A program made the translations under genes and the position numbers. Below the pieces are notes generated by a model. That model ran no database searches. It was not told the origin of the DNA and worked only from the letters and a program-made list of their open reading frames with translations. From the sequence record PZ386951.1: a DNA stretch of 64,000 nucleotides; one strand, given 5' to 3'. Within the stretch, counting starts at the first letter, position 1. Each line of letters opens with the position of its first letter. Origin of the DNA: a phage. Of this stretch, positions 2,626 to 30,438 are shown piece after piece.

Positions 2626-4277
<1,652 letters not shown>

Positions 4278-4278
<1 letters not shown>

Positions 4279-4526
4279 TGGAAGGTTTAATTGAAGCTAT
4301 TAAATCAAACGACCTCGTAGCCGCTCGTAAATTATTTGCTGAAGCCATGGCTGCAAGAACGATTGATTTAATTAAAGAAGAAAAAATCGCTATCGCTCGT
4401 AATTTCTTAATCGAAGGTGAAGAACCTGAAGACGAGGATGATGACGAAGACGAAGATGGTGATGATAAAGACGATAAAAAAGACAAAGACTCTGACGAAG
4501 ATGACGAAGACGAGGATGATGAATAA
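4278..4526 (+). CDS. 67: prohead core protein gp67, with poly-Asp/Glu C-terminus
   Basis: 82 aa; position between 20 and 68; acidic tail [16 protein letters not shown]; start overlaps gene 20 stop. Confidence 0.85.
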
Positions 4527-4951
4527 TGCTTCTGATCCCTGAAACTCATGAATTAGTTCTCGAGAATGTCGAAGCACTTATTCCTGAAGCACAGGGTCGC
4601 TTTGACGAATTGTCTTCTGCTTTAAATAAAGACGATATAAATACAATTGTCGAGAATATGCTTGATGATGAAACTGATTTAGCGGTTGCATTAGCTTCTA
4701 TTAATGAAAATATGCCGTTAAATGAATTCATCGTTAAACATGTTTCCGCCCGTGGTGAAATTACTCGCACTAAAGATCGCAAAACCCGCGAACGAAATGC
4801 ATTTCAAACCACTGGGTTGTCTAAAGCAAAACGTAGACAAATTGCTCGTAAAGCTACCAAAACGAAGATTGCCAATCCAGCAGGTCAATCTCGTGCTCAG
4901 CGTAAGCGTAAAAAAGCTCTTAAACGCCGTAAAGCATTAGGATTAAGCTAA
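4526..4951 (+). CDS. 68: prohead core protein gp68
   Basis: 141 aa, same length and position as T4 gp68; basic C-terminus. Confidence 0.85.
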
Positions 4952-5589
4952 TGAATGAACCCCAATTACTAATTGAAACTTGGGGTCAACCTGGCGAAAT
5001 TATTGATGGCGTGCCAATGCTTGAATCTCATGATGGAAAAGACTTAGGTTTAAAACCGGGTTTATACATCGAAGGAATATTCATGCAAGCGGAAGTCGTC
5101 AATAGAAATAAACGTCTTTATCCAAAACGTATATTAGAAAAAGCGGTAAAAGACTATATTAATGAGCAAGTTTTAACTAAACAAGCTCTCGGAGAATTAA
5201 ATCATCCTCCACGCGCTAATGTTGACCCGATGCAAGCCGCTATCATTATAGAAGATATGTGGTGGAAAGGAAATGACGTATACGGACGAGCTCGTGTTAT
5301 TGAAGGTGACCATGGTCCTGGAGATAAATTAGCAGCTAATATTCGTGCCGGATGGATTCCAGGAGTTTCTTCTCGTGGATTAGGTTCATTGACTGACACA
5401 AATAAAGGTTATCGTATCGTAAACGAAGGATTCAAATTAACTGTAGGTGTTGATGCAGTATGGGGTCCAAGTGCTCCAGATGCATGGGTAACTCCTAAGG
5501 AAATTACCGAATCACAGACGGCGGAAGCCGATACAAGTGCCGATGACGCCTATATGGCTCTCGCAGAGGCCATGAAAAAAGCGTTATAA
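4951..5589 (+). CDS. 21: prohead core scaffold and protease gp21
   Basis: 212 aa, same length and position as T4 gp21. Confidence 0.93.
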   Translation: MNEPQLLIETWGQPGEIIDGVPMLESHDGKDLGLKPGLYIEGIFMQAEVVNRNKRLYPKRILEKAVKDYINEQVLTKQALGELNHPPRANVDPMQAAIIIEDMWWKGNDVYGRARVIEGDHGPGDKLAANIRAGWIPGVSSRGLGSLTDTNKGYRIVNEGFKLTVGVDAVWGPSAPDAWVTPKEITESQTAEADTSADDAYMALAEAMKKAL

Positions 5590-19885: not shown

Positions 19886-20366
19886 TAAAGAAGTTTCTAT
19901 TCCTAAAATGGGTCTTAAACATTATAACATTTTAAAAGATGTTAAAGGTCCTGATGAAAATTTAAAACTTCTTATTGATTCTATTTGTCCGAATTTATCA
20001 CCGGCAGAAGTTGATTTCGTTTCTATTCATTTGCTAGAATTTAATGGAAAGATTAAATCTCGTAAAGAAATAGATGGTTATACTTATGATATTAATGACG
20101 TTTATGTATGTCAAAGATTGGAATTTCAATACCAAGGAAATACATTTTATTTTAGACCTCCTGGAAAATTTGAACAATTTTTAACTGTAAGCGATATGTT
20201 ATCTAAATGCTTGCTTAAGGTCAATGATGAAGTTAAAGAAATTAATTTTCTTGAGATGCCAGCATTCGTTTTAAAATGGGCAAATGATATTTTTACAACT
20301 TTAGCAATTCCTGGCCCTAATGGTCCAATAACCGGAATTGGCAATATTATTGGATTATTTGAATGA
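19833..20366 (+). CDS. 28: baseplate hub distal subunit gp28
   Basis: 177 aa, same length as T4 gp28; overlaps the gene 27 3-prime end. Confidence 0.85.
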
Positions 20367-22135
20367 AAAAGCCACAAGAAATGCAAACGATGCGTAGAAA
20401 AGTTATTTCAGATAATAAACCAACACAGGAAGCGGCTAAATCCGCTTCTAATACTTTATCTGGTCTTAATGACATTTCTACAAAATTAGATGATGCTCAA
20501 GCTGCCTCTGAATTAATAGCTCAGACTGTTGAAGAAAAATCAAATGAAATAGTTGGAGCAATTGATAACGTTGAAAGCGCAGTAAGTGATACTACTGCCG
20601 GTTCTGAGTTAATTGCTGAAACTGTTGAAATTGGAAACAATATTAATAAAGAAATCGGTGAATCGCTCGGAAGCAAATTAGATAAATTAACAAGTTTACT
20701 GGAACAAAAAATTCAGACAGCTGGAATTCAGCAAACTGGAACGAGTTTAGCAGTAGTCGAAAATGCTATTCCTGTTAAAGTCGTCGAGGATGATACAGCT
20801 GAATCTGTGGGTCCTTTATTACCGGCTCCTGAAGCAGTTAATAATGATCCTGATGCTGATTTTTTCCCTACTCCTCAGCCAATTGAACCAAAACAAGAGT
20901 CTCCAGAAGAGAAGCAAAAAAGAGACGCATTTAACTTAAAAATATCTAATGCATTAGATAAATTAACAAAGACAGTTGATTTCGGATTTAAGAAATCTAT
21001 TTCAATTACTGATAAAATATCTAGCATGCTATTTAAGTATACCGTCAGTGCTGCTATTGAAGCTGCTAAAATGGTTGCATTGATAATGGCTGTTGTTATT
21101 GGAATAGACCTGCTGATGGTTCATTTTAAATACTGGTCAGATAAATTTTCAAAAGCCTGGGATTTATTTAGCACTGATTTTAAAACTTTCTCAAGCGAAA
21201 CAGGAACTTGGGGCCCTTTATTACAAAGCATCTTTGAATCTATTGATGAAATTAAAAAGTTCTGGGAAGCCGGAGATTGGGGCGGATTAACAGTAGCTAT
21301 TGTTGAAGGGCTTGGAAGTGTTCTTTATAATTTAGGAGAGCTTATTCAATTAGGTATGGCTAAATTATCTGCAGCAATTCTTCGAGCCATTCCTGGCATG
21401 AAGGATACTGCTGATGAAGTAGAAGGAAGAGCATTAGAAAATTTCCAAAATTCTACTGGAGCATCTCTTAATAAAGAAGACCAAGAAAAAGTAGCAAATT
21501 ATCAAGATAAACGAATGAATGATGATCTTGGCCCAATAGCAAAAGGATTAGACAAAATTGCGAACTGGAAAACTCGTGCATCTAACTGGATTCGTGGTGT
21601 AGATAATAAAGAAGCATTGACTACTGACGAAGAACGTGCAGCAGAAGAAGAAAAATTAAAACAACTTTCACCGGAAGAAAGAAAAAATGCTTTAATGAAA
21701 GCTAATGAAGCTCGTGCTGCGATGATTCGTTTTGAAAAATACGCTGATTCAGCTGATATGGGCAAAGACTCGACAGTTAAATCAATTGAAGCTGCTCATG
21801 AAGACCTTAAAAAACGAATGAATGATCCGGATTTAAATAATTCACCAGCAGTTAAAAAAGAACTTGCTTCTAGATTTGCTAAAATTGATGCCACTTATCA
21901 AGAGCTCAAGAAAAATCAGCCTGAAGCAAAACCTGAAACTTCTGCTAAATCGCCAGAAGCAAAACAAGTTCAGGTAATAGAAAAGAACAAAGCACAGCAA
22001 GCTCCTGTTCAACAAGCATCTCCTTCGATCAATAATACTAATAATGTTATTAAGAAAAATACTGTCGTTCATAATATGACACCTGTCACAAGCACAACTG
22101 CTCCTGGTGTATTTGGTGCGACGGGAGTTAATTAA
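20363..22135 (+). CDS. 29: baseplate hub / tail length determinator gp29
   Basis: 590 aa, same length as T4 gp29; extended helical, Ala/Glu/Lys-rich. Confidence 0.9.
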   Translation: MKKPQEMQTMRRKVISDNKPTQEAAKSASNTLSGLNDISTKLDDAQAASELIAQTVEEKSNEIVGAIDNVESAVSDTTAGSELIAETVEIGNNINKEIGESLGSKLDKLTSLLEQKIQTAGIQQTGTSLAVVENAIPVKVVEDDTAESVGPLLPAPEAVNNDPDADFFPTPQPIEPKQESPEEKQKRDAFNLKISNALDKLTKTVDFGFKKSISITDKISSMLFKYTVSAAIEAAKMVALIMAVVIGIDLLMVHFKYWSDKFSKAWDLFSTDFKTFSSETGTWGPLLQSIFESIDEIKKFWEAGDWGGLTVAIVEGLGSVLYNLGELIQLGMAKLSAAILRAIPGMKDTADEVEGRALENFQNSTGASLNKEDQEKVANYQDKRMNDDLGPIAKGLDKIANWKTRASNWIRGVDNKEALTTDEERAAEEEKLKQLSPEERKNALMKANEARAAMIRFEKYADSADMGKDSTVKSIEAAHEDLKKRMNDPDLNNSPAVKKELASRFAKIDATYQELKKNQPEAKPETSAKSPEAKQVQVIEKNKAQQAPVQQASPSINNTNNVIKKNTVVHNMTPVTSTTAPGVFGATGVN

Positions 22136-22143
22136 GGAATAAT

Positions 22144-23238
22144 ATGGCAATTGTTAAAGAAATAACTGCTGATTTAATTAAAAAGTCCGGTGAAACAATT
22201 TCAGCCGGACAGAGTACTAAATCAGAAGTAGGAACTAAAACATACACAGCCCAGTTTCCAACTGGGCGTGCTAGTGGTAATGACACTACAGGGGACTTCC
22301 AGGTAACAGATCTATATAAGAATGGATTATTATTTACTGCATACAATATGTCATCTAGGGATTCTGGAAGTCTTAGAACGATGAGATCTAACTACTCTTC
22401 TTCATCTTCGAGTATTTTACGTACAGCCAGAAACACTATCAGTAATACAGTATCAAAACTATCAAATGGACTAATATCAGATAATAATTCAGGAACAATA
22501 AGTAAAGTTCCTGTTGCAAATATTCTTTTACCTAGATCTAAATCTGACGTCGATACGTCATCACATAGATTTAATGATGTTCAAGATAGTCTTATTACAA
22601 AAGGCGGAGGAACTGCTACGGGCGTATTAAGTAATATGGCTTCAACTGCAGTATTTGGCGCGCTTGAAAGTATAACACAAGGAATAATGGCTGATAATAA
22701 TGAACAGATCTATACAACAGCTAGAAGTATGTATGGCGGTGCTGAAAATAGAACAAAAGTGTTCACCTGGGATTTGACTCCACGCTCAACAGAAGATTTA
22801 ATGGCTATTATTAATATCTATCAGTATTTTAACTATTTTTCTTACGGTGAAACTGGTAAATCTCAATATGCTGCTGAAATAAAAGGATATTTAGATGAGT
22901 GGTATCGTTCTACATTTATTGAACCATTAACGCCAGAAGACGCGATTAAAAACAAGACGTTATTTGAAAAAATGACATCGAGTTTAACGAACGTTCTTGT
23001 AGTTTCAAACCCGACAATTTGGATGGTGAAAAACTTTGGTGCAACTTCTAAATTTGATGGAAAGACTGAAGTATTCGGTCCATGCCAAATACAGAGTATT
23101 AGATTTGATAAAACACCAAATGGTAACTTTAATGGATTAGCTATTGCTCCTAACCTTCCAAGTTCTTTTACACTCGAGATTACTATGAGAGAGATTATTA
23201 CGTTAAACCGTGCTTCTTTATATACGGGGACTTTCTAA
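22144..23238 (+). CDS. 48: baseplate tail-tube cap gp48
   Basis: 364 aa, same length and position as T4 gp48. Confidence 0.9.
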   Translation: MAIVKEITADLIKKSGETISAGQSTKSEVGTKTYTAQFPTGRASGNDTTGDFQVTDLYKNGLLFTAYNMSSRDSGSLRTMRSNYSSSSSSILRTARNTISNTVSKLSNGLISDNNSGTISKVPVANILLPRSKSDVDTSSHRFNDVQDSLITKGGGTATGVLSNMASTAVFGALESITQGIMADNNEQIYTTARSMYGGAENRTKVFTWDLTPRSTEDLMAIINIYQYFNYFSYGETGKSQYAAEIKGYLDEWYRSTFIEPLTPEDAIKNKTLFEKMTSSLTNVLVVSNPTIWMVKNFGATSKFDGKTEVFGPCQIQSIRFDKTPNGNFNGLAIAPNLPSSFTLEITMREIITLNRASLYTGTF

Positions 23239-24203
23239 TGTATTCTTTAGAGGAATTTAATAATCAAGCAATAAACGCAGACTTCCAACGTAATAATATG
23301 TTCAGCTGTGTTTTTGCTACAACTCCATCAACTAAAAGCTCTTCGTTGATAAGCTCAATTAGTAACTTTGCTTATAATAACTTGGGTCTAAATTCAGATT
23401 GGTTAGGATTAACTCAAGGTGATATTAATCAGGGAATTACCACGCTAATTACAGCTGGCACACAAAAACTAATAAGAAAATCGGGAGTCAGTAAATATCT
23501 TATTGGCGCTATGAGTCAGCGTACTGTCCAGAGTTTATTAGGCTCATTTACAGTTGGTACATATTTAATTGACTTCTTTAACATGGCATATAACTCATCT
23601 GGATTGATGATATATTCTGTAAAAATGCCAGAAAATAGATTATCTTATGAAACTGACTGGAACTATAACTCTCCTAATATTCGTATAACTGGAAGAGAAT
23701 TAGACCCTTTGGTTATTTCATTCAGAATGGATTCAGAAGCTTGTAACTATCGTGCAATGCAAGACTGGGTTAACGCTGTTCAAGACCCAGTAACTGGATT
23801 GCGTGCTTTGCCACAAGATGTCGAGGCAGATATTCAGGTTAATCTTCATTCTCGTAATGGATTGCCTCATACTGCGGTGATGTTCACCGGATGCATTCCA
23901 GTGTCAGTGAGCGCTCCTGAGTTATCATATGATGGAGATAACCAAATAACTACATTTGATGTTACTTTTGCGTATAGAGTGATGCAGGCTGGAGCAGTTG
24001 ATAGACAAGCTGCGCTTGAATGGCTTGAATCTGCTGCTATAAATGGTATTCAAAGCGTTCTCGGAAATAGTGGAGGTGTTACTGGACTATCTAATTCGCT
24101 TTCACGACTCAGTAGATTAGGGGGAACTGCTGGAAGCATTTCAAACATTAATACCATGACAGGAATTGTTAATTCGCAAAGTAAAATATTAGGAGCAATA
24201 TAA
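23238..24203 (+). CDS. 54: baseplate tail-tube initiator gp54
   Basis: 321 aa; T4 gp54 position; start overlaps the gene 48 stop. Confidence 0.9.
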   Translation: MYSLEEFNNQAINADFQRNNMFSCVFATTPSTKSSSLISSISNFAYNNLGLNSDWLGLTQGDINQGITTLITAGTQKLIRKSGVSKYLIGAMSQRTVQSLLGSFTVGTYLIDFFNMAYNSSGLMIYSVKMPENRLSYETDWNYNSPNIRITGRELDPLVISFRMDSEACNYRAMQDWVNAVQDPVTGLRALPQDVEADIQVNLHSRNGLPHTAVMFTGCIPVSVSAPELSYDGDNQITTFDVTFAYRVMQAGAVDRQAALEWLESAAINGIQSVLGNSGGVTGLSNSLSRLSRLGGTAGSISNINTMTGIVNSQSKILGAI

Positions 24204-24207
24204 TAAT

Positions 24208-24225
24208 GGGGACCTTTCGGTCCCC
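24208..24225. terminator. GC-rich hairpin GGGGACC-TTTCG-GTCCCC with T tract
   Basis: inverted repeat then ATATTTTTATTT; between convergent gene 54 and the alt-region genes. Confidence 0.6.
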
Positions 24226-24231
24226 ATATTT

Positions 24232-24522
24232 TTATTTACGGAATGAAATGAAAGCAGCAACTGAAGCAACTAAACTGTCTTCAATATAAACTTCAATTTT
24301 TACCGGAGCTTCTGACTCAAATTTACCTGTTACTACACCCTGAAAAATACTTTCAGTCTGTTCTGGCTTTGAAAAATTTTCAGAAGGAAAAATTCCGAAC
24401 TTTTTATCTGTTCCAAAAATTTTAATAAATTCATCGTAAACTGCTTCATTAAAAGCATTATCAGCAGGAATAACGCCTTCAACTACAAGTTCTTGACCTA
24501 AAAAGCGCAAAGAAGATTTCAT
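24232..24522 (-). CDS. hypothetical protein (alt.-3 position)
   Basis: 96 aa with ATG start; GAGG Shine-Dalgarno; has its own upstream promoter cassette. Confidence 0.6.
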   Translation of the reverse strand: MKSSLRFLGQELVVEGVIPADNAFNEAVYDEFIKIFGTDKKFGIFPSENFSKPEQTESIFQGVVTGKFESEAPVKIEVYIEDSLVASVAAFISFRK

Positions 24523-24530
24523 TTTGTGTT

Positions 24531-24583
24531 CCTCATGTTATGTCAGTAAGACTACTATAACACAACACGAGGGGCTTGTAAAC
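24531..24583 (-). promoter_or_regulatory. early promoter plus stem-loop cassette (PeSL-like), copy 1
   Basis: minus-strand GTTTAC, 17 nt spacer, TATAGT; inverted repeat CCTCATGTT/AACACGAGG encloses the -10; 51 of 53 nt identical to 39508-39559. Confidence 0.55.
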
Positions 24584-26640
24584 TACATTTTGAACTTTTT
24601 AGACATTCCGTTAATGTTAACCAAAGAAGCTAAGATTTGAGAAACTTCGTTTTCCTCTTCTTTTGATTCTTCTACAAGGAATTGATTAAATCCAGTCATT
24701 GGACGAACTTCACCAGTTTCCATTAGATGGTCGCCATCATATACTGATTCCTCTAATTGTTCAGAAGGAGGAACGATTGTACCTTCGATTAGATACTTGT
24801 TATAAGCAGTTTCTTTCATAAAGTACGTACTTACTTTATTAATCTTCAGTAAAATTCCACGCGGTAGAATAACTTCAGCTTCTGATGGAAATCCTGATAA
24901 ATGACCTGGAACAATAACTTTGATTCGCTCAGCTCCTTTAATTACCATACCCACGCTAGTTTCAGCATCTTCATTAGCATATGTAGAATGACTACCCATA
25001 TGCATCAAATCTTCTGCATCAACGGAACCTTCTACTTCGCCAGAAAACGCTGCACCGGAATCATCTAGAGCCATATAGTTTTTACCATGCTCACCGAAGA
25101 TATTTGGTTTAAGCGATGTGGATACGAAGTTCTTGAAATAGAACATTTTGTTTTCAATGTTATGACGCAAAGTTTTAAATGTAACTTCTTGTCCACGGTA
25201 AAGTGTAGTTCCTGGAGGAAGAACTGAACCTTTAGCGAATGCAGAATCAAGCGTCTCAATATGTTTAATAGCTCGTTCCATATATTCTTCACGGGTAGAA
25301 TCTGGTTTACCCAAAAGGAACGAGTTCATTTCAACATATGAATCTGCACAATAATCTTCAATTACATCAGATTCAGCTTGAGTTAATCCTTTTGGAGTTA
25401 CTTCGGTGCTTGCGTATTCATATGCCTGGGCAGCAGATTCATTAATCAATTTATAAATGCCATTCATGACAAATTGAATAATAGCTGTCTTTTCATCTGG
25501 CGTGGCTTTAGAACCTTTAACTAAATCATTAATAATTTTCTTAATAACATCAAAGCTATTAGAAATATTAATGTCAGCAAGATCGCTTAAAATTTTATCA
25601 GTTTTATAATCAAAGAATTCTTTATTCTTTAAATATTCTTGAGAACCTTGATATGTTATATCGCTCTGCAACTTGATAGATGGATCACGTAAACGCGCAT
25701 GGGCTAATGCAATATGATTTCGGAAGTTTTCTAGTTCATAATCGCTAGATTTAAAACGAGAAGCACTCCTCATACCACCGATAGCTCCTTTGCTGAAGTT
25801 TGAACCAATCTGGATAACGCCAGAGTTCATCGGACCTTCTGCTTTATATACCGGAACTTTAGATTCAAACTCTTGATATTTCTTAGCAGCGAAGCTATCA
25901 CCCTGAAGTGAAGCATCAACAGTAGAATATTGAGCTTGTGCTGCTAATCGACGACTAATTTTAGTTTTCTGAATAACAGCTTGATCCGTACGCTTATCAT
26001 TTTCTTGTGCAATAGAAGCAGCAACAGCAACAGCTTTAGGAACAGCATTACCTGTTTTAACGTCTACATAAACATCACCAACCTTTGATTCAACTTTTGT
26101 GAATAACTCAGTTGAAATAGGAGGTACACCTGGAATGTCTTCTAAATTGGCATTTTTACGGTAAACCATAATATATGCATACTTTTTATCATAGTCCCAG
26201 ATTTCCTTTAAAAGAACATATCGACCTGCTCCTTTAGTACGTACTAAACGGTCAGCAATAACTTGCATTTGACGAGCAGCGCCATTTGTTTTACTTTTTA
26301 GTACGCGGAATAAGCATGCATCAATTTTATACTGCTTCATTGTTTGAAGAGCAGTATCAAAAACAGCATTAATGACGCCAATTGGATTTCCACCCAAGTT
26401 TCTAAGCTTAACCAGCGATAATTTCTCGTTGACACCTATCATTACGATATGCATCATTTTGTCGCCCGGCTTAACGTTTTTATTTGTATCACCGCCAGAG
26501 GTGTATGTACAAAATCTAAATCCAGGAAGAACGATTTCTTCACCGGCTTGAATAGCAAAAATTTGTGGTATTTTATGCTTAGGATTTAAGTTAACAACCG
26601 GCGCCGAAGCGCCGTCAAATAATTCTGTAATAAGTTCCAT
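24583..26640 (-). CDS. Alt-like ADP-ribosyltransferase paralog
   Basis: 685 aa; N-terminus MELITELFD and C-terminal ART motifs YRGQ, FVSTSL, SEAEVILPRG shared with the adjacent alt; central region divergent. Confidence 0.8.
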   Translation of the reverse strand: MELITELFDGASAPVVNLNPKHKIPQIFAIQAGEEIVLPGFRFCTYTSGGDTNKNVKPGDKMMHIVMIGVNEKLSLVKLRNLGGNPIGVINAVFDTALQTMKQYKIDACLFRVLKSKTNGAARQMQVIADRLVRTKGAGRYVLLKEIWDYDKKYAYIMVYRKNANLEDIPGVPPISTELFTKVESKVGDVYVDVKTGNAVPKAVAVAASIAQENDKRTDQAVIQKTKISRRLAAQAQYSTVDASLQGDSFAAKKYQEFESKVPVYKAEGPMNSGVIQIGSNFSKGAIGGMRSASRFKSSDYELENFRNHIALAHARLRDPSIKLQSDITYQGSQEYLKNKEFFDYKTDKILSDLADINISNSFDVIKKIINDLVKGSKATPDEKTAIIQFVMNGIYKLINESAAQAYEYASTEVTPKGLTQAESDVIEDYCADSYVEMNSFLLGKPDSTREEYMERAIKHIETLDSAFAKGSVLPPGTTLYRGQEVTFKTLRHNIENKMFYFKNFVSTSLKPNIFGEHGKNYMALDDSGAAFSGEVEGSVDAEDLMHMGSHSTYANEDAETSVGMVIKGAERIKVIVPGHLSGFPSEAEVILPRGILLKINKVSTYFMKETAYNKYLIEGTIVPPSEQLEESVYDGDHLMETGEVRPMTGFNQFLVEESKEEENEVSQILASLVNINGMSKKFKM

Positions 26641-26643
26641 GAT

Positions 26644-28740
26644 TTATCCTTGAACGAACTTGTAAGGCATGTTTGTAATATCTATGCAAGACGCAATAAT
26701 TCCGAGAGATGATTCTACTTTCTGTTTAACATTTGATGAAACAAATGATGCAAAGTCAACTCTGTCTTCTATTTCAATATCACCTGTCATTGCAACTACT
26801 TCGCCGGTTTCCATTAAATGGTCTCCGTCATAGATTACCGATTCGGTGAGCTCTTCCGTGGTCATAACTTCAGCTTGAATGAGTTTTGTATTATTAGACG
26901 TGGTTCCGTCATTATTAGAAGCATCAGTTATTTTATTAACTTTGACCATCAATCCACGCGGTAGAATAACTTCAGCTTCTGTTGCTATTCCGAGACTTCC
27001 TGGATATACAACATTAACTTTATGAGCTCCATCAATTGCCCATCCTATTTGAACTTTAACGTATTCAGGATTTTCTTTATACGCTCTTATTTCGTTTGGA
27101 TTAATAGTTATTCCTTCTTCATTTTTATCAACTGTTAATTCATTGCGAGCTTCTGGTTCTAAAAGACCAATACCAGCATGTGTGATTCCAAAACGTCCAA
27201 AAATGATAGGAGTTAAAGAAGTAGATACAAAATTTCTGAAGTAGAACACTTTATTTTTAACTAACGCTTCATATATAGGAGCAGTCATACTTTGAGCACG
27301 ATAAACTGTAATGCCTTCTGGTATACGGTCACCATTTTCAAAAGCTGAATCTAAGTTATTTATAGCAGATTCAATTTCTTTTTCACTCATTACATCGTAT
27401 CGTTCTGGATTGTAACGACCTAAAAGAAGATTATTAATGTCTGTATATCCTGAACCGCAATATTCTCTAATGCCACGCTTTTGTGATGGAGTATATTTAG
27501 AACCATCGCGGGCAATAGTAATATCAATCATTGGACCGGCACCAATTCCAGAAAAACTGTAAATCATTCGTTTGAGGAATTTAGTTTTTGCTGCGTTCCA
27601 GGAATTTTTAGTTATTTCTTCCCAGACTTCGTCTGGTTGCCCTTTACGAGTTTTATTATGTTTATCAAGCCAATTATCTTTATATTCTTCAAAGAATTTA
27701 TTAACAGCTGCTGCGTATTTCTCTAAACATTTTATTGAAGTAGTTGGTTCATTTTTGATTGCGTTAAAAATTACATCTTTAATTTTTTCTGAAACTTCAT
27801 CAACCTCACTTTTTGAAAAGAATTTATAGTCATAGTGAAGTTCATTCGCAGTTCCTTCGGCAATAATTTTTGCTGCCTTAGTTTTAGAAGCTAATGAATT
27901 AATTCCAAGCTTCATTTCTTCTGCTTCGGGAATTAAAGGAGCGTCAGCAGGTTTATTTAATTCTGCTGCTGAAGCCTCAAATTTTTGAAATATCGGCGTT
28001 TCAAATCTAGAAGATTCCAACGACTGACTTTGTGCAATTGCTCTACGGGAAATTTTAACTTTAACGATTACCGCTTGGTCAGAACGTTTATCATTTTCTT
28101 GCGCAATAGATGCTGCAATTGCCTCATTTTTAGTTACTTGGGCTCCAGTATCTTTATTGATATAAACATCACCGACCTTCGATTCAACTTTAGCAAAGAG
28201 CTCGGTACTAATTTCCGGAACTCCTGGAATGTCTTCTAGTGATACATTTTTGCGATGTATAAGAATATATGCATACTTTTTGTCGTAATCCCAGAGTTCC
28301 TTGAGAAGGACGTATCTGCCACCTGAACGACTACGGATAAGTCTATCAGCAATAACTTGAATTTGTCGAGCTTGGCCAGCAGTTTTAGACTTAAGAATAC
28401 GAAGCATACAAGCATCAATTTTATACTGACGCATCGTTTGCATTGCAACAGTAAAAACTGAATTGATATAATTAATTGGGCTTGGACCAAGACCTTTTAA
28501 TTTAGCAATTGAACCTTTAGCAGTTAATGTAAAAGGAACAATATGCATCATTTTATCGCCCATCTTTAAATCGCGATTAGTATCACCTCCAGATGTATAG
28601 GTACATAAACGAAAGCCTGGTTGTTCAATTGCGTCATCAACATGAACTGAAAAAATTTGTGGTATTTTCTTCTTTGGATTTAAGTTTGTAATCGGAAGAG
28701 TAGTATCTTCGTCAAATAATTCTGTAATGAGTTCCATCAT
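26644..28740 (-). CDS. alt: Alt ADP-ribosyltransferase (packaged, injected with DNA)
   Basis: 698 aa; MMELITELFDEDTTLPITNL matches T4 Alt as recalled; R-S-EXE motifs YRAQ, FVSTSL, TEAEVILPRG. Confidence 0.88.
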   Translation of the reverse strand: MMELITELFDEDTTLPITNLNPKKKIPQIFSVHVDDAIEQPGFRLCTYTSGGDTNRDLKMGDKMMHIVPFTLTAKGSIAKLKGLGPSPINYINSVFTVAMQTMRQYKIDACMLRILKSKTAGQARQIQVIADRLIRSRSGGRYVLLKELWDYDKKYAYILIHRKNVSLEDIPGVPEISTELFAKVESKVGDVYINKDTGAQVTKNEAIAASIAQENDKRSDQAVIVKVKISRRAIAQSQSLESSRFETPIFQKFEASAAELNKPADAPLIPEAEEMKLGINSLASKTKAAKIIAEGTANELHYDYKFFSKSEVDEVSEKIKDVIFNAIKNEPTTSIKCLEKYAAAVNKFFEEYKDNWLDKHNKTRKGQPDEVWEEITKNSWNAAKTKFLKRMIYSFSGIGAGPMIDITIARDGSKYTPSQKRGIREYCGSGYTDINNLLLGRYNPERYDVMSEKEIESAINNLDSAFENGDRIPEGITVYRAQSMTAPIYEALVKNKVFYFRNFVSTSLTPIIFGRFGITHAGIGLLEPEARNELTVDKNEEGITINPNEIRAYKENPEYVKVQIGWAIDGAHKVNVVYPGSLGIATEAEVILPRGLMVKVNKITDASNNDGTTSNNTKLIQAEVMTTEELTESVIYDGDHLMETGEVVAMTGDIEIEDRVDFASFVSSNVKQKVESSLGIIASCIDITNMPYKFVQG

Positions 28741-28773
28741 ATCCTCTCTAGTGTTTATTCTATTTATAAAATT

Positions 28774-28791
28774 AAAGGCCCGAAGGCCTTT
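28774..28791. terminator. hairpin AAAGGCC-CGAA-GGCCTTT
   Basis: perfect inverted repeat between the small ORF and alt. Confidence 0.5.
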
Positions 28792-28978
28792 AATAATCTA
28801 TTGGTAAGAGAGTACGATATATTTCAAACTTTGGACCTTTTTCATAAGCATCAAAAGTTTCTGTGAATTTATTATAAGCATATGCATCTACAAATTCGAG
28901 AATGACTTGTGATACAGAAGTAGAAACATCTCCACCTTCTTTTTGAGCAATGACAATTGTTTCTAAGTAAGCTTTCAT
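28790..28978 (-). CDS. hypothetical small protein
   Basis: 62 aa with ATG start; start overlaps the gene 30 stop. Confidence 0.45.
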   Translation of the reverse strand: MKAYLETIVIAQKEGGDVSTSVSQVILEFVDAYAYNKFTETFDAYEKGPKFEIYRTLLPIDY

Positions 28979-30438
28979 AAACCAGTTACCTCATGAAAAT
29001 CGCCAAATACATCTTCGAACGTATTAGCTTTAGTTTTATCTTCACGTAAACGAATCGCAATCGGAAGAAATAATTTAACGTAATCAGTGCGGCCATCAGA
29101 TTTTAACCAACCGTTGCATTCGCACTCTAGAATTTTTCCAATATAATAATTTTGGTTTTCCATAATGCGAGTACGGTCAAGTTCATGTGATTTTACGCCG
29201 GCTTTATCTTTTAAGCCTGAACCAGCATTTACTTTAATTTTTCCACACTCTGACTCAAGAATAAATCCACCTGCTTTAGTAGGGTCTTTACGGTGAGGAT
29301 AAATTCCTACAATTTTTAAATCAACATCAATTACTTCTTTAAATTTATAAAGATTTTTTGAACGAGCATTTTCCCATAATCCATCGATATTTTTGAGAAT
29401 AATACCTTCAAGACCTTGGTCAATATACTTTTTATAAATTACCTTAGCTTCATCTAGGTTATTTACTACTTGGTTTTCAATTAAAATTACTTTATCATAG
29501 CCTGATGTCATTTGTTCTAGTTTAGAAAAACGTACATCATATTTTAAACGAAATGCAGGAAGACCGTATATTTCTACCAACGGGACATAATCCCAGACCT
29601 GAAACTTCATGCATTGAGCTTCTTTTTCAGAAATGGTTCCCTTTAAAGATTTATTGGCGATGCCATTAGATGCAGTACGTGATTCAGCTACTTCGGCGAA
29701 TTCTTTATCTTTACTAATTTCAGGATAAGCATCAAAAAGAAAATCTAGGCCTTCTGGCTCCTTTTTAACTTGCTCATGGTATACCAATTCGCCATCAATT
29801 AACACACCTTCTGGATGAATCTGGCGGGCTTCGGCGGTCATTTTAATTAACTCTTCCTTAAGAAGATCTAATCCTAGATATTCATTACCAGCTCGTGATA
29901 AAAGACGAACATCATCTAATTCATCACCTCTAACTTCAGCAAAACACCGAGCCCCATCAGCTTTTAACTGGGCAAAGGCTGGAAATTTGATATTCTTATT
30001 AATGCCTTTTTCATCATAAGAACTTGCAAGCATTTGAGGTTGTTCAGGAATTAAACCTGGCCAAACTTTGTTTGCAATAGATATTGAAGCACCGCATTCA
30101 AGGTCTCGCATCATCACTCGACGCAAAACTTCAACATCATCTTTTTTACCATCAGTAATATATCCAGTTAATTCCTCAATTGCCGCATTTCCAGTCAATT
30201 TCCGAGTAGCTAACGTGAATTCAATGAAGTCAAGCATATCGGTAAGAGTCAACATTCCAAAACTCTGGGTAGCAATACCCGGTTTAGGCCATTTCTTGAT
30301 ATAATACTGTAACCCACGAGAATAAGTCAGACGATATACTCGTTTAAGCAATTCATTATCTTTATTCTTTTCAAGAATTGCTTGCTTCTGCTTAGTTGAA
30401 CCAATAGATGCTATTTCGTTCAGAATTTTAAGAATCAT
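28975..30438 (-). CDS. 30: ATP-dependent DNA ligase gp30
   Basis: 487 aa; MILKILNEIASIGSTKQKQAILEKNKDNELLKRVYRLTYS and KADGAR adenylation motif; matches T4 DNA ligase. Confidence 0.96.
   Translation of the reverse strand: MILKILNEIASIGSTKQKQAILEKNKDNELLKRVYRLTYSRGLQYYIKKWPKPGIATQSFGMLTLTDMLDFIEFTLATRKLTGNAAIEELTGYITDGKKDDVEVLRRVMMRDLECGASISIANKVWPGLIPEQPQMLASSYDEKGINKNIKFPAFAQLKADGARCFAEVRGDELDDVRLLSRAGNEYLGLDLLKEELIKMTAEARQIHPEGVLIDGELVYHEQVKKEPEGLDFLFDAYPEISKDKEFAEVAESRTASNGIANKSLKGTISEKEAQCMKFQVWDYVPLVEIYGLPAFRLKYDVRFSKLEQMTSGYDKVILIENQVVNNLDEAKVIYKKYIDQGLEGIILKNIDGLWENARSKNLYKFKEVIDVDLKIVGIYPHRKDPTKAGGFILESECGKIKVNAGSGLKDKAGVKSHELDRTRIMENQNYYIGKILECECNGWLKSDGRTDYVKLFLPIAIRLREDKTKANTFEDVFGDFHEVTGL

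Follow-up and report, generated by a model that had tools for sequence, protein, structure and literature searches.

Tandem alt and alt.-2 genes of a T4-type phage as two old Alt-like ADP-ribosyltransferase paralogs at an apparently recombining locus

Why would a T4-type phage keep, directly behind the gene for its ADP-ribosyltransferase (ART) Alt, a second gene of almost the same length and architecture, and would the two proteins do the same work? About 40 copies of Alt are carried in the T4 capsid and injected with the DNA, and the enzyme uses NAD to ADP-ribosylate host proteins, among them RNA polymerase alpha. The locus considered here lies in a 64,000-nt stretch of a Tequatrovirus (T4-type) genome (record PZ386951.1; called the window below, with all coordinates given as positions in the whole stretch). 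A first-pass annotation, made from the letters of the sequence, had placed two adjacent minus-strand open reading frames (ORFs) there, and we confirmed both, at 26644–28740 (698 amino acids (aa) from the first ATG) and at 24583–26640 (685 aa). The upstream ORF is alt; the downstream one, referred to as alt.-2, codes for a second, equally complete protein of the Alt type, very probably delivered in the same way and plausibly with targets of its own.

The two proteins are homologous over their full length (42% identity, E = 3e-161, BLASTP). Both match PHROG 802, the 'Alt-like RNA polymerase ADP-ribosyltransferase' family, practically from end to end (Alt residues 1–696, 3e-271; Alt.-2 residues 1–685, 5e-257), and cluster representatives 98% identical to them carry the precomputed domains PF26846 and PF03496. 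With the Pfam model PF03496 (ADPrib_exo_Tox, cut-off 23.4 bits) Alt scores 128.9 bits (2e-37) and Alt.-2 72.4 bits (4.2e-20), so the pair lies above threshold; NCBIfam has no model for either protein, and when PDB chains were searched directly with the Alt.-2 sequence no match came up, the ART toxins being reached only with a profile of the family alignment. The AlphaFold2 (AF2) models of both (mean predicted local distance difference test, pLDDT, 75.6 for Alt and 74.3 for Alt.-2) consist of an alpha/beta N-domain, a helical centre (pLDDT 75–90), an ART domain and a disordered tail. In Alt these parts correspond to residues ~12–238, ~240–410, ~415–630 and a C-terminal propeptide at 633–697. 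The pair shows the ART fold, and the modelled catalytic domain of Alt.-2 matches the structures of Vis, C3, Certhrax, CDTa, iota and VIP2.

All three catalytic motifs had been called intact in both proteins, and this was borne out: Alt (697 aa) has YRAQ, FVSTSL and EAEVILPRG, and Alt.-2 has R482 (YRGQ), S507-T-S509 (FVSTSL) and E587-A-E589 (EAEVILPRG). The catalytic R, S-T-S and E-x-E, including the aligned ExE glutamates, are invariant columns of a 17-sequence family alignment, and in the profile of this alignment the motifs coincide with the catalytic Arg and Q/ExE of C3-like and iota-like toxins of solved structure (C3cer, 4xsg; BECa, 5gtt).

The similarity is distributed very unevenly. In a sliding-window comparison of Alt with Alt.-2, identity is 53–80% over residues 1–238, falls to 3–23% at ~240–415 and returns to 30–57% in the ART core, which is interrupted by a hypervariable insert at ~510–560; a YDGDHLMETGEV block near the C-terminus is conserved. 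The N-terminus, described as near-identical in the first-pass annotation, is in fact ~65–70% identical over the N-domain, with only the first 9 residues the same. Synonymous divergence (dS) in the N-domain is ~1.5 and non-synonymous divergence (dN) 0.29. The alt/alt.-2 duplication is therefore old, and because dS is that high we attribute the N-terminal similarity to purifying selection on the protein. Recent gene conversion in the window genome was considered as a source of this similarity and rejected, given the dS of ~1.5 there.

The central part was said to comprise about 200 unrelated residues; the lack of relationship holds, and the length is nearer ~175. By 'unrelated' we mean that no sequence relationship is detectable between the two centres, both of which are helical: profile–profile alignment (HHalign, built on 5 and 8 sequences, with which a very remote relationship is possible) returned a probability of 0.3% and E = 0.19. 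The loop in front of ExE differs too: it is GFPSEAE for Alt.-2, G-IATEAE for the Alt of the window and APSNEME for that of T4. This 'ARTT' region has a part in substrate choice in enzymes of the C3 and iota families. Since the centres have no detectable similarity and the ExE-flanking loops differ, different substrate sets are most likely, and to judge from these sequences distinct targets for Alt and Alt.-2 are plausible.

What is the second gene? Its 685-aa product is 98% identical to the RB32 alt.-2 protein (YP_803136), of equal length and encoded at the same position. The T4 genes alt.-1 (NP_049810) and alt.-2 (NP_049809) occupy the same locus and are the orthologs of its first ~116 codons; the families founded on them, PHROG 23015 and 15247, match Alt.-2 at 3e-39 and 1e-37 versus 1e-21 and 2e-19 for Alt. 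T4 DNA aligns at 96% on either side of a gap that corresponds to window positions 24603–26292. On the grounds of the RB32 match, the PHROG preference and the flanking DNA identity we read the 685-aa gene as the full-length form of T4 alt.-1/alt.-2. The junction falls in a 9-bp direct repeat, ACTTTTTAG, whose distal copy is at 24594–24602 and proximal copy at 26293–26301; T4 has therefore lost the 1,699 bp between the repeats, and what is left there is broken up into two small ORFs. In the T4 record alt.-1/alt.-2 carry the remark 'an old duplication of the first part of gene alt'. Our comparison shows that they are what remains of a complete paralog; the remark on a partial duplication appears to be mistaken.

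The deleted form is the minority: among 502 records with a match to the T4 remnant, 91 have it in one piece as T4 does. Intact alt.-2 at 90% identity or higher is present in ~400 phage records, T2 and T6 among them (95–99% identity among Tequatroviruses), and is the common state in T4 relatives; these copy-number and record figures are summary counts from BLAST and should be read as such, not as a genome-by-genome census. Both genes are under strong purifying selection. Compared with RB32, dN/dS is 0.09 for alt and 0.03 for alt.-2, the latter with 6 non-synonymous differences.

It should be noted that the pair itself is already known, and what we describe is the correct reading of an annotated feature. 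The first-pass annotation had left it uncertain whether a full-length paralog was annotated in T4 relatives; it is, as RB32 alt.-2, in T2 and T6 and in hundreds more. The RB32 record has listed alt.-2 as 'similar to alt' since 2006, and in many genomes the two genes go under the RefSeq name 'Alt-like RNA polymerase ADP-ribosyltransferase'. Nolan et al. (2006) mention that alt is duplicated, in part or in full length, in T4-like phages (PMC1524935), and a 2026 paper reports a pair of Alt-like paralogs sharing 43.29% identity and suggests functional divergence (PMC13600099). Such published mentions of the second paralog as we found in the literature searched are descriptive (PMC1524935, PMC13600099). 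The possibility that the second gene would turn out to be ordinary alt.-2 with a described function thus came true in its first half, the identity with alt.-2; no described function was found in that literature. What is added here is the picture of a recombining array of one to three copies in which the ends would act as crossover points and the payload would be exchanged.

Is Alt.-2 built to be packaged? Mass spectrometry of T4 heads has shown that the gp21 protease cuts Alt at ITE-6, removing 6 residues, and at LTE-619, removing 63 (PMC5694885). The I-x-E site noticed earlier in the shared N-terminus is of this gp21 type and equals the ITE-6 reported for T4 Alt (PMC5694885). At the level of motifs, aligned gp21-type sites are present at both ends of both proteins: ITE-6 in each, LTE-632 in Alt and LEE-631 in Alt.-2. 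Across the 17 family members the P1 Glu of both sites is invariant, and P3 is always L, I or M. The N-terminal propeptide MELITE, predicted to be cut after the invariant E6, is encoded at 28720–28737 (−) in alt and at 26623–26640 (−) in alt.-2, where it belongs to the nine residues identical in the two proteins. In Alt, the 65 aa that follow LTE-632 (26647–26841 (−)) are the predicted C-terminal propeptide, which carries the conserved YDGDHLMETGEV motif and is partly disordered in the model, with pLDDT ~71–75 at residues 633–650 and <50 at 652–697. Its counterpart in Alt.-2 (54 aa after LEE-631; 24586–24747 (−)) is largely disordered in the model, with pLDDT <50 at residues 629–670 and 677–685. 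The predicted trimmed cores would be 70.1 kDa for Alt and 69.2 kDa for Alt.-2, and gp21, gp22 (scaffold), gp23 (major capsid protein) and gp20 (portal) are all encoded in the window.

The expression signals point in the same direction. Upstream of alt, a T4-type late promoter box TATAAATA lies at 28761–28768 (−), just after the GC-rich stem-loop terminator found 3' of alt.1. At the alt/alt.-2 junction (26641–26652 (−)) the TAA stop of alt is followed 3 nt later by the ATG of alt.-2, whose AAGGA ribosome-binding site lies within the end of alt. The 3-nt gap has no space for a separate promoter, which implies co-transcription, and the two genes are almost certainly read late from the single late box upstream of alt, as far as these signals allow prediction. 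T4 alt is itself a late gene (PMC9697503). The pair thus has the late promoter and the position of an Alt family gene, with gene 30/alt.1 on one side and alt.-3/gene 54 on the other. The window has 19 late boxes versus 8.8 expected; a further perfect copy of TATAAATA occurs within the alt coding sequence at 27357–27364 (−), around codon 460 and upstream of the ART core, and may be there by chance.

From the gp21 sites, the shared late promoter and the purifying selection we infer that both proteins are very probably made late, packaged, trimmed and injected. One could instead imagine that Alt.-2 is not an injected enzyme at all, but either a structural or core component without catalysis, or an enzyme made late and working solely inside the cell that makes it, and indeed no experimental report of its packaging or activity was found in the literature searched. 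Against this explanation, which we regard as very improbable, speak the catalytic residues, all intact and invariant, the conservation of both gp21 sites and the propeptides, co-transcription with alt from a late promoter, an Alt family match from end to end and the selection on alt.-2.

The upstream gene helps to understand how the locus varies. Two consecutive ATGs are found at 28735–28740 (−), the first of which, at 28740, gives the 698-aa ORF. Because the Shine–Dalgarno sequence GAGAGGA is only 2 nt from this first ATG and the T4 and RB32 annotations use the MELITE start, we place the start at the second ATG (28737). alt then occupies 26644–28737 (−) and probably encodes 697 aa; of the two gene lengths in the first-pass annotation, 685 aa stands and 698 aa is likely one residue too long. 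The window Alt is 97–98% identical to T6/T2 Alt and in sequence terms is the T2/T6/RB32 allele type of Alt ADP-ribosyltransferase. Compared with T4 Alt it is 73% identical overall, but this average hides a mosaic: ~99% identity over residues 1–265 and again at the C-terminal end, 13–40% in the centre and 57–80% in the ART domain. DNA identity along the gene likewise starts at 96%, becomes undetectable and then recovers to 79%.

There are thus at least two alt alleles, T4-type and T2/T6-type, and mosaicism does not stop at alleles. ECML-134 has a single hybrid gene (positions 3001–5061 of locus L003) made up of the Alt N-terminus, as far as about residue 160, fused with the body of Alt.-2, and KAW1E185 a single hybrid (L004, 3004–5061) in which Alt continues to about residue 640 and is followed by the tail of Alt.-2. 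Both look like deletions produced by homologous recombination between the tandem paralogs. The metagenomic recombinant proteins P0003, P0005 and P0006 have additional crossover points inside the N-domain. At the other extreme, Dhakavirus PSD9 carries three tandem Alt paralogs of 631, 693 and 707 aa (L005, 3100–9212). Its middle copy is 92–97% identical to the window Alt in the ART region and only 40–50% in the N-domain, which suggests an exchange of payload between genera; in the first copy (631 aa) the usual F/Y-V-S-x-S block was not picked up by a motif search. A centre of the Alt.-2 type is seen again in the third copy (ORF6; 40–55% identity in the centre) and in proteins annotated 'Alt' of phage JS10 and Salmonella phage KM16, although KM16-like similarity is weak (20–24%).

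Judged by such comparisons, the alt locus is best described as a recombining modular array with one, two or three copies. Because of the alleles, the hybrids, the PSD9 copies and the recurring Alt.-2-type centre, we read the conserved ends as crossover handles around an exchangeable payload made of the centre and the ART domain. We would go further only tentatively, and put the following at somewhat below an even chance: that the alt locus of T-even phages is a modular 'injected-effector array', in which the N-domain and C-propeptide would serve both as packaging/ejection handles and as recombination sites, and the exchangeable centre and ART domain would have distinct host substrates. If so, most T-even phages would inject two different ADP-ribosyltransferases and some three, and the T4-based view of the earliest host take-over would lack an entire enzyme, whose target may be a defence or process untouched by Alt.

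A separate observation concerns split genes. Matches in BFVD include Acinetobacter phages ZZ1 and Henu6, with genes annotated 'split RNA polymerase ADP-ribosylase', and Citrobacter phage CF1, with two partial Alt ORFs; the Alt family therefore also occurs split into separate N- and C-terminal genes.

Phages with one payload of either type, together with the viability of T4 without alt.-2, raise the question of whether the second enzyme is simply more of the first. It might be a redundant dose or backup, packaged and active on the same main targets as Alt, namely RNA polymerase alpha and whatever else Alt modifies, with the centre serving only as a spacer or a head packing element. The same architecture and catalytic motifs in both proteins would agree with this, and the N-domain, at 65–70% conservation, could be the part that binds the target. 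A spare copy, however, is not expected to show dN/dS of 0.03 and 95–99% identity over ~400 genomes, nor should the centre and the ExE-flanking loops have stayed so unlike those of Alt. We therefore hold redundancy to be rather unlikely.

A different role for the second enzyme, in fact a special case of the explanation we prefer, would be dedicated counter-defence: injected Alt.-2 would ADP-ribosylate and so disarm a defence system or toxin that only some strains possess, which would explain a costless loss on laboratory hosts. A precedent is the reported down-regulation of MazF by T4 Alt (Alawneh et al. 2016, as cited in PMC9697503), and the adjoining gene alt.-3 can mutate to block CmdTAC, since T4 mutants with a C-terminal extension of Alt.-3 escape this defence through a block of CmdA degradation (PMC11618068). 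The shuffling, gain and loss of payload cassettes also resembles an arms race. Rapid arms-race evolution, on the other hand, is not what Alt.-2 displays, being nearly invariant in Tequatroviruses (95–99%), and no defence system is linked to it in the literature searched. Counter-defence as the specific role looks quite unlikely to us.

The explanation that we prefer is a late operon, P-late–alt–alt.-2–alt.-3, that codes for two ancient paralogs of the T4 Alt mono-ADP-ribosyltransferase. Each protein is laid out in four parts: a short N-propeptide leading into the conserved alpha/beta N-domain, an all-helical centre that varies, the catalytic R-S-ExE domain of C3/iota/VIP2 type and a disordered C-propeptide. 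Both precursors would enter the prohead core, where gp21 would trim them after E6 and after the C-terminal L-x-E to cores of ~70 and ~69 kDa; both would be injected along with the DNA and, during the first seconds of infection, transfer ADP-ribose from NAD+ to host proteins at their arginines. The substrate sets of Alt and Alt.-2 would be different, possibly overlapping, and the conserved ends would double as recombination handles allowing payload swap, fusion, loss and gain. That both proteins are packaged, gp21-trimmed and injected arginine ADP-ribosyltransferases with different or partly different substrates has, in our estimate, a probability of roughly 60%. Gene structure, homology, motifs, conservation, selection and mosaicism are what the sequences show; packaging, cleavage, injection, activity and distinct targets are inferred.

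Several points count against this estimate. The literature searched yielded no virion proteome and no biochemical or genetic work on the second enzyme. T4 and ~18% of matching records do without intact alt.-2, and ECML-134 and KAW1E185 keep one payload each, so the second enzyme is dispensable, at least on laboratory hosts. As both centres are helical, they could have a common fold and role despite the lack of sequence similarity. The AF2 models, finally, were built on thin alignments (15–17 sequences) and reach a predicted TM-score of 0.56.

The matter is of some consequence. Nearly all work on injected ADP-ribosylation that we found was done in T4, which has only the remnant of alt.-2 left by the 1.7-kb deletion, while ~80% of the sequenced T4-type phages matching the region, T2 and T6 included, encode an intact and strongly conserved second Alt. 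If Alt.-2 acts on substrates of its own, then for most of these phages, which include many phage therapy candidates, the catalogue of host proteins modified at the moment of infection falls short.

The surroundings of the pair are those of a regular T4 relative. On the plus strand, gene 29 (20363–22135), gene 48 (22144–23238) and gene 54 (23238–24203) lead to a bidirectional stem-loop terminator at 24206–24227, for which the KAW1E185 record has an annotated terminator at the same spot. Facing it is alt.-3 (24232–24522 (−); 96 aa, DUF5498, Pfam PF17602 1.4e-64), the final gene of the cluster ahead of this terminator. On the other side, alt.1 (28790–28978 (−); 62 aa, PF24647 'Phage blade protein', 2e-29) lies between alt and the DNA ligase gene 30 (28975–30438 (−)). 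Both alt.-3 and alt.1 are syntenic with T4 and RB32, and the whole order from gene 29 to gene 30 around the alt pair is that of these two phages. At the DNA level many T-even relatives match the 4.8-kb region with 97% identity, RB32, RB33, T6 and Shigella phage Phaginator among them, and 394 phage records match at least 80% of it in one alignment. In the 60-nt gap upstream of alt.-3 we noticed a sigma-70-like promoter match, TTTACA-17-TATAGT with TG (24582–24554).

Among known systems the closest is T4 Alt itself (NP_049811; PHROG 802), with which the pair shares the four-part architecture, R/STS/ExE, both gp21 sites, the locus and the late promoter. Its N-domain is ~99% identical to that of the window Alt and ~65–70% to that of Alt.-2. 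The differences are concentrated in the payload: against T4 Alt the window Alt has 13–40% identity in the centre and 57–80% in the ART domain, while Alt.-2 has a centre without detectable similarity to that of either Alt and other ExE loops. RB32 alt.-2 and its orthologs in T2, T6 and ~400 Tequatrovirus records are the same gene as the window alt.-2, with no substantive difference. T4 alt.-1/alt.-2, in contrast, lack 1,699 bp of it and are two small ORFs. ModA and ModB of T4 belong to the R-S-E clade of phage ADP-ribosyltransferases and act on host transcription and translation proteins (PMC5512222); unlike the Alt pair they are small, early and not packaged, and have no Alt N-domain, centre or propeptides. 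The C3-like, iota/CDTa/VIP2-like and Vis arginine- or asparagine-specific toxins (PF03496) share the catalytic fold and motifs, but, as exotoxins of bacteria, they have different modules for delivery and act on eukaryotic targets, and identity with them is only 14–25%.

In its organization the locus also brings to mind polymorphic toxins and effectors such as Rhs, CDI and T6SS cargo. Assignment to such a family was rejected: no cognate immunity gene is evident beside either payload at the alt locus, where only 3 nt separate the two genes, and the sole small neighbours of the pair, alt.1 and alt.-3, are kept whichever payload is present. Unlike in those systems, the payload at the alt locus always comes from one enzyme family, and delivery would proceed by capsid packaging and DNA ejection. 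As an analogy, and only as such, the comparison is apt, for in both cases conserved ends enclose a variable, recombining payload, in tandem arrays of varying copy number.

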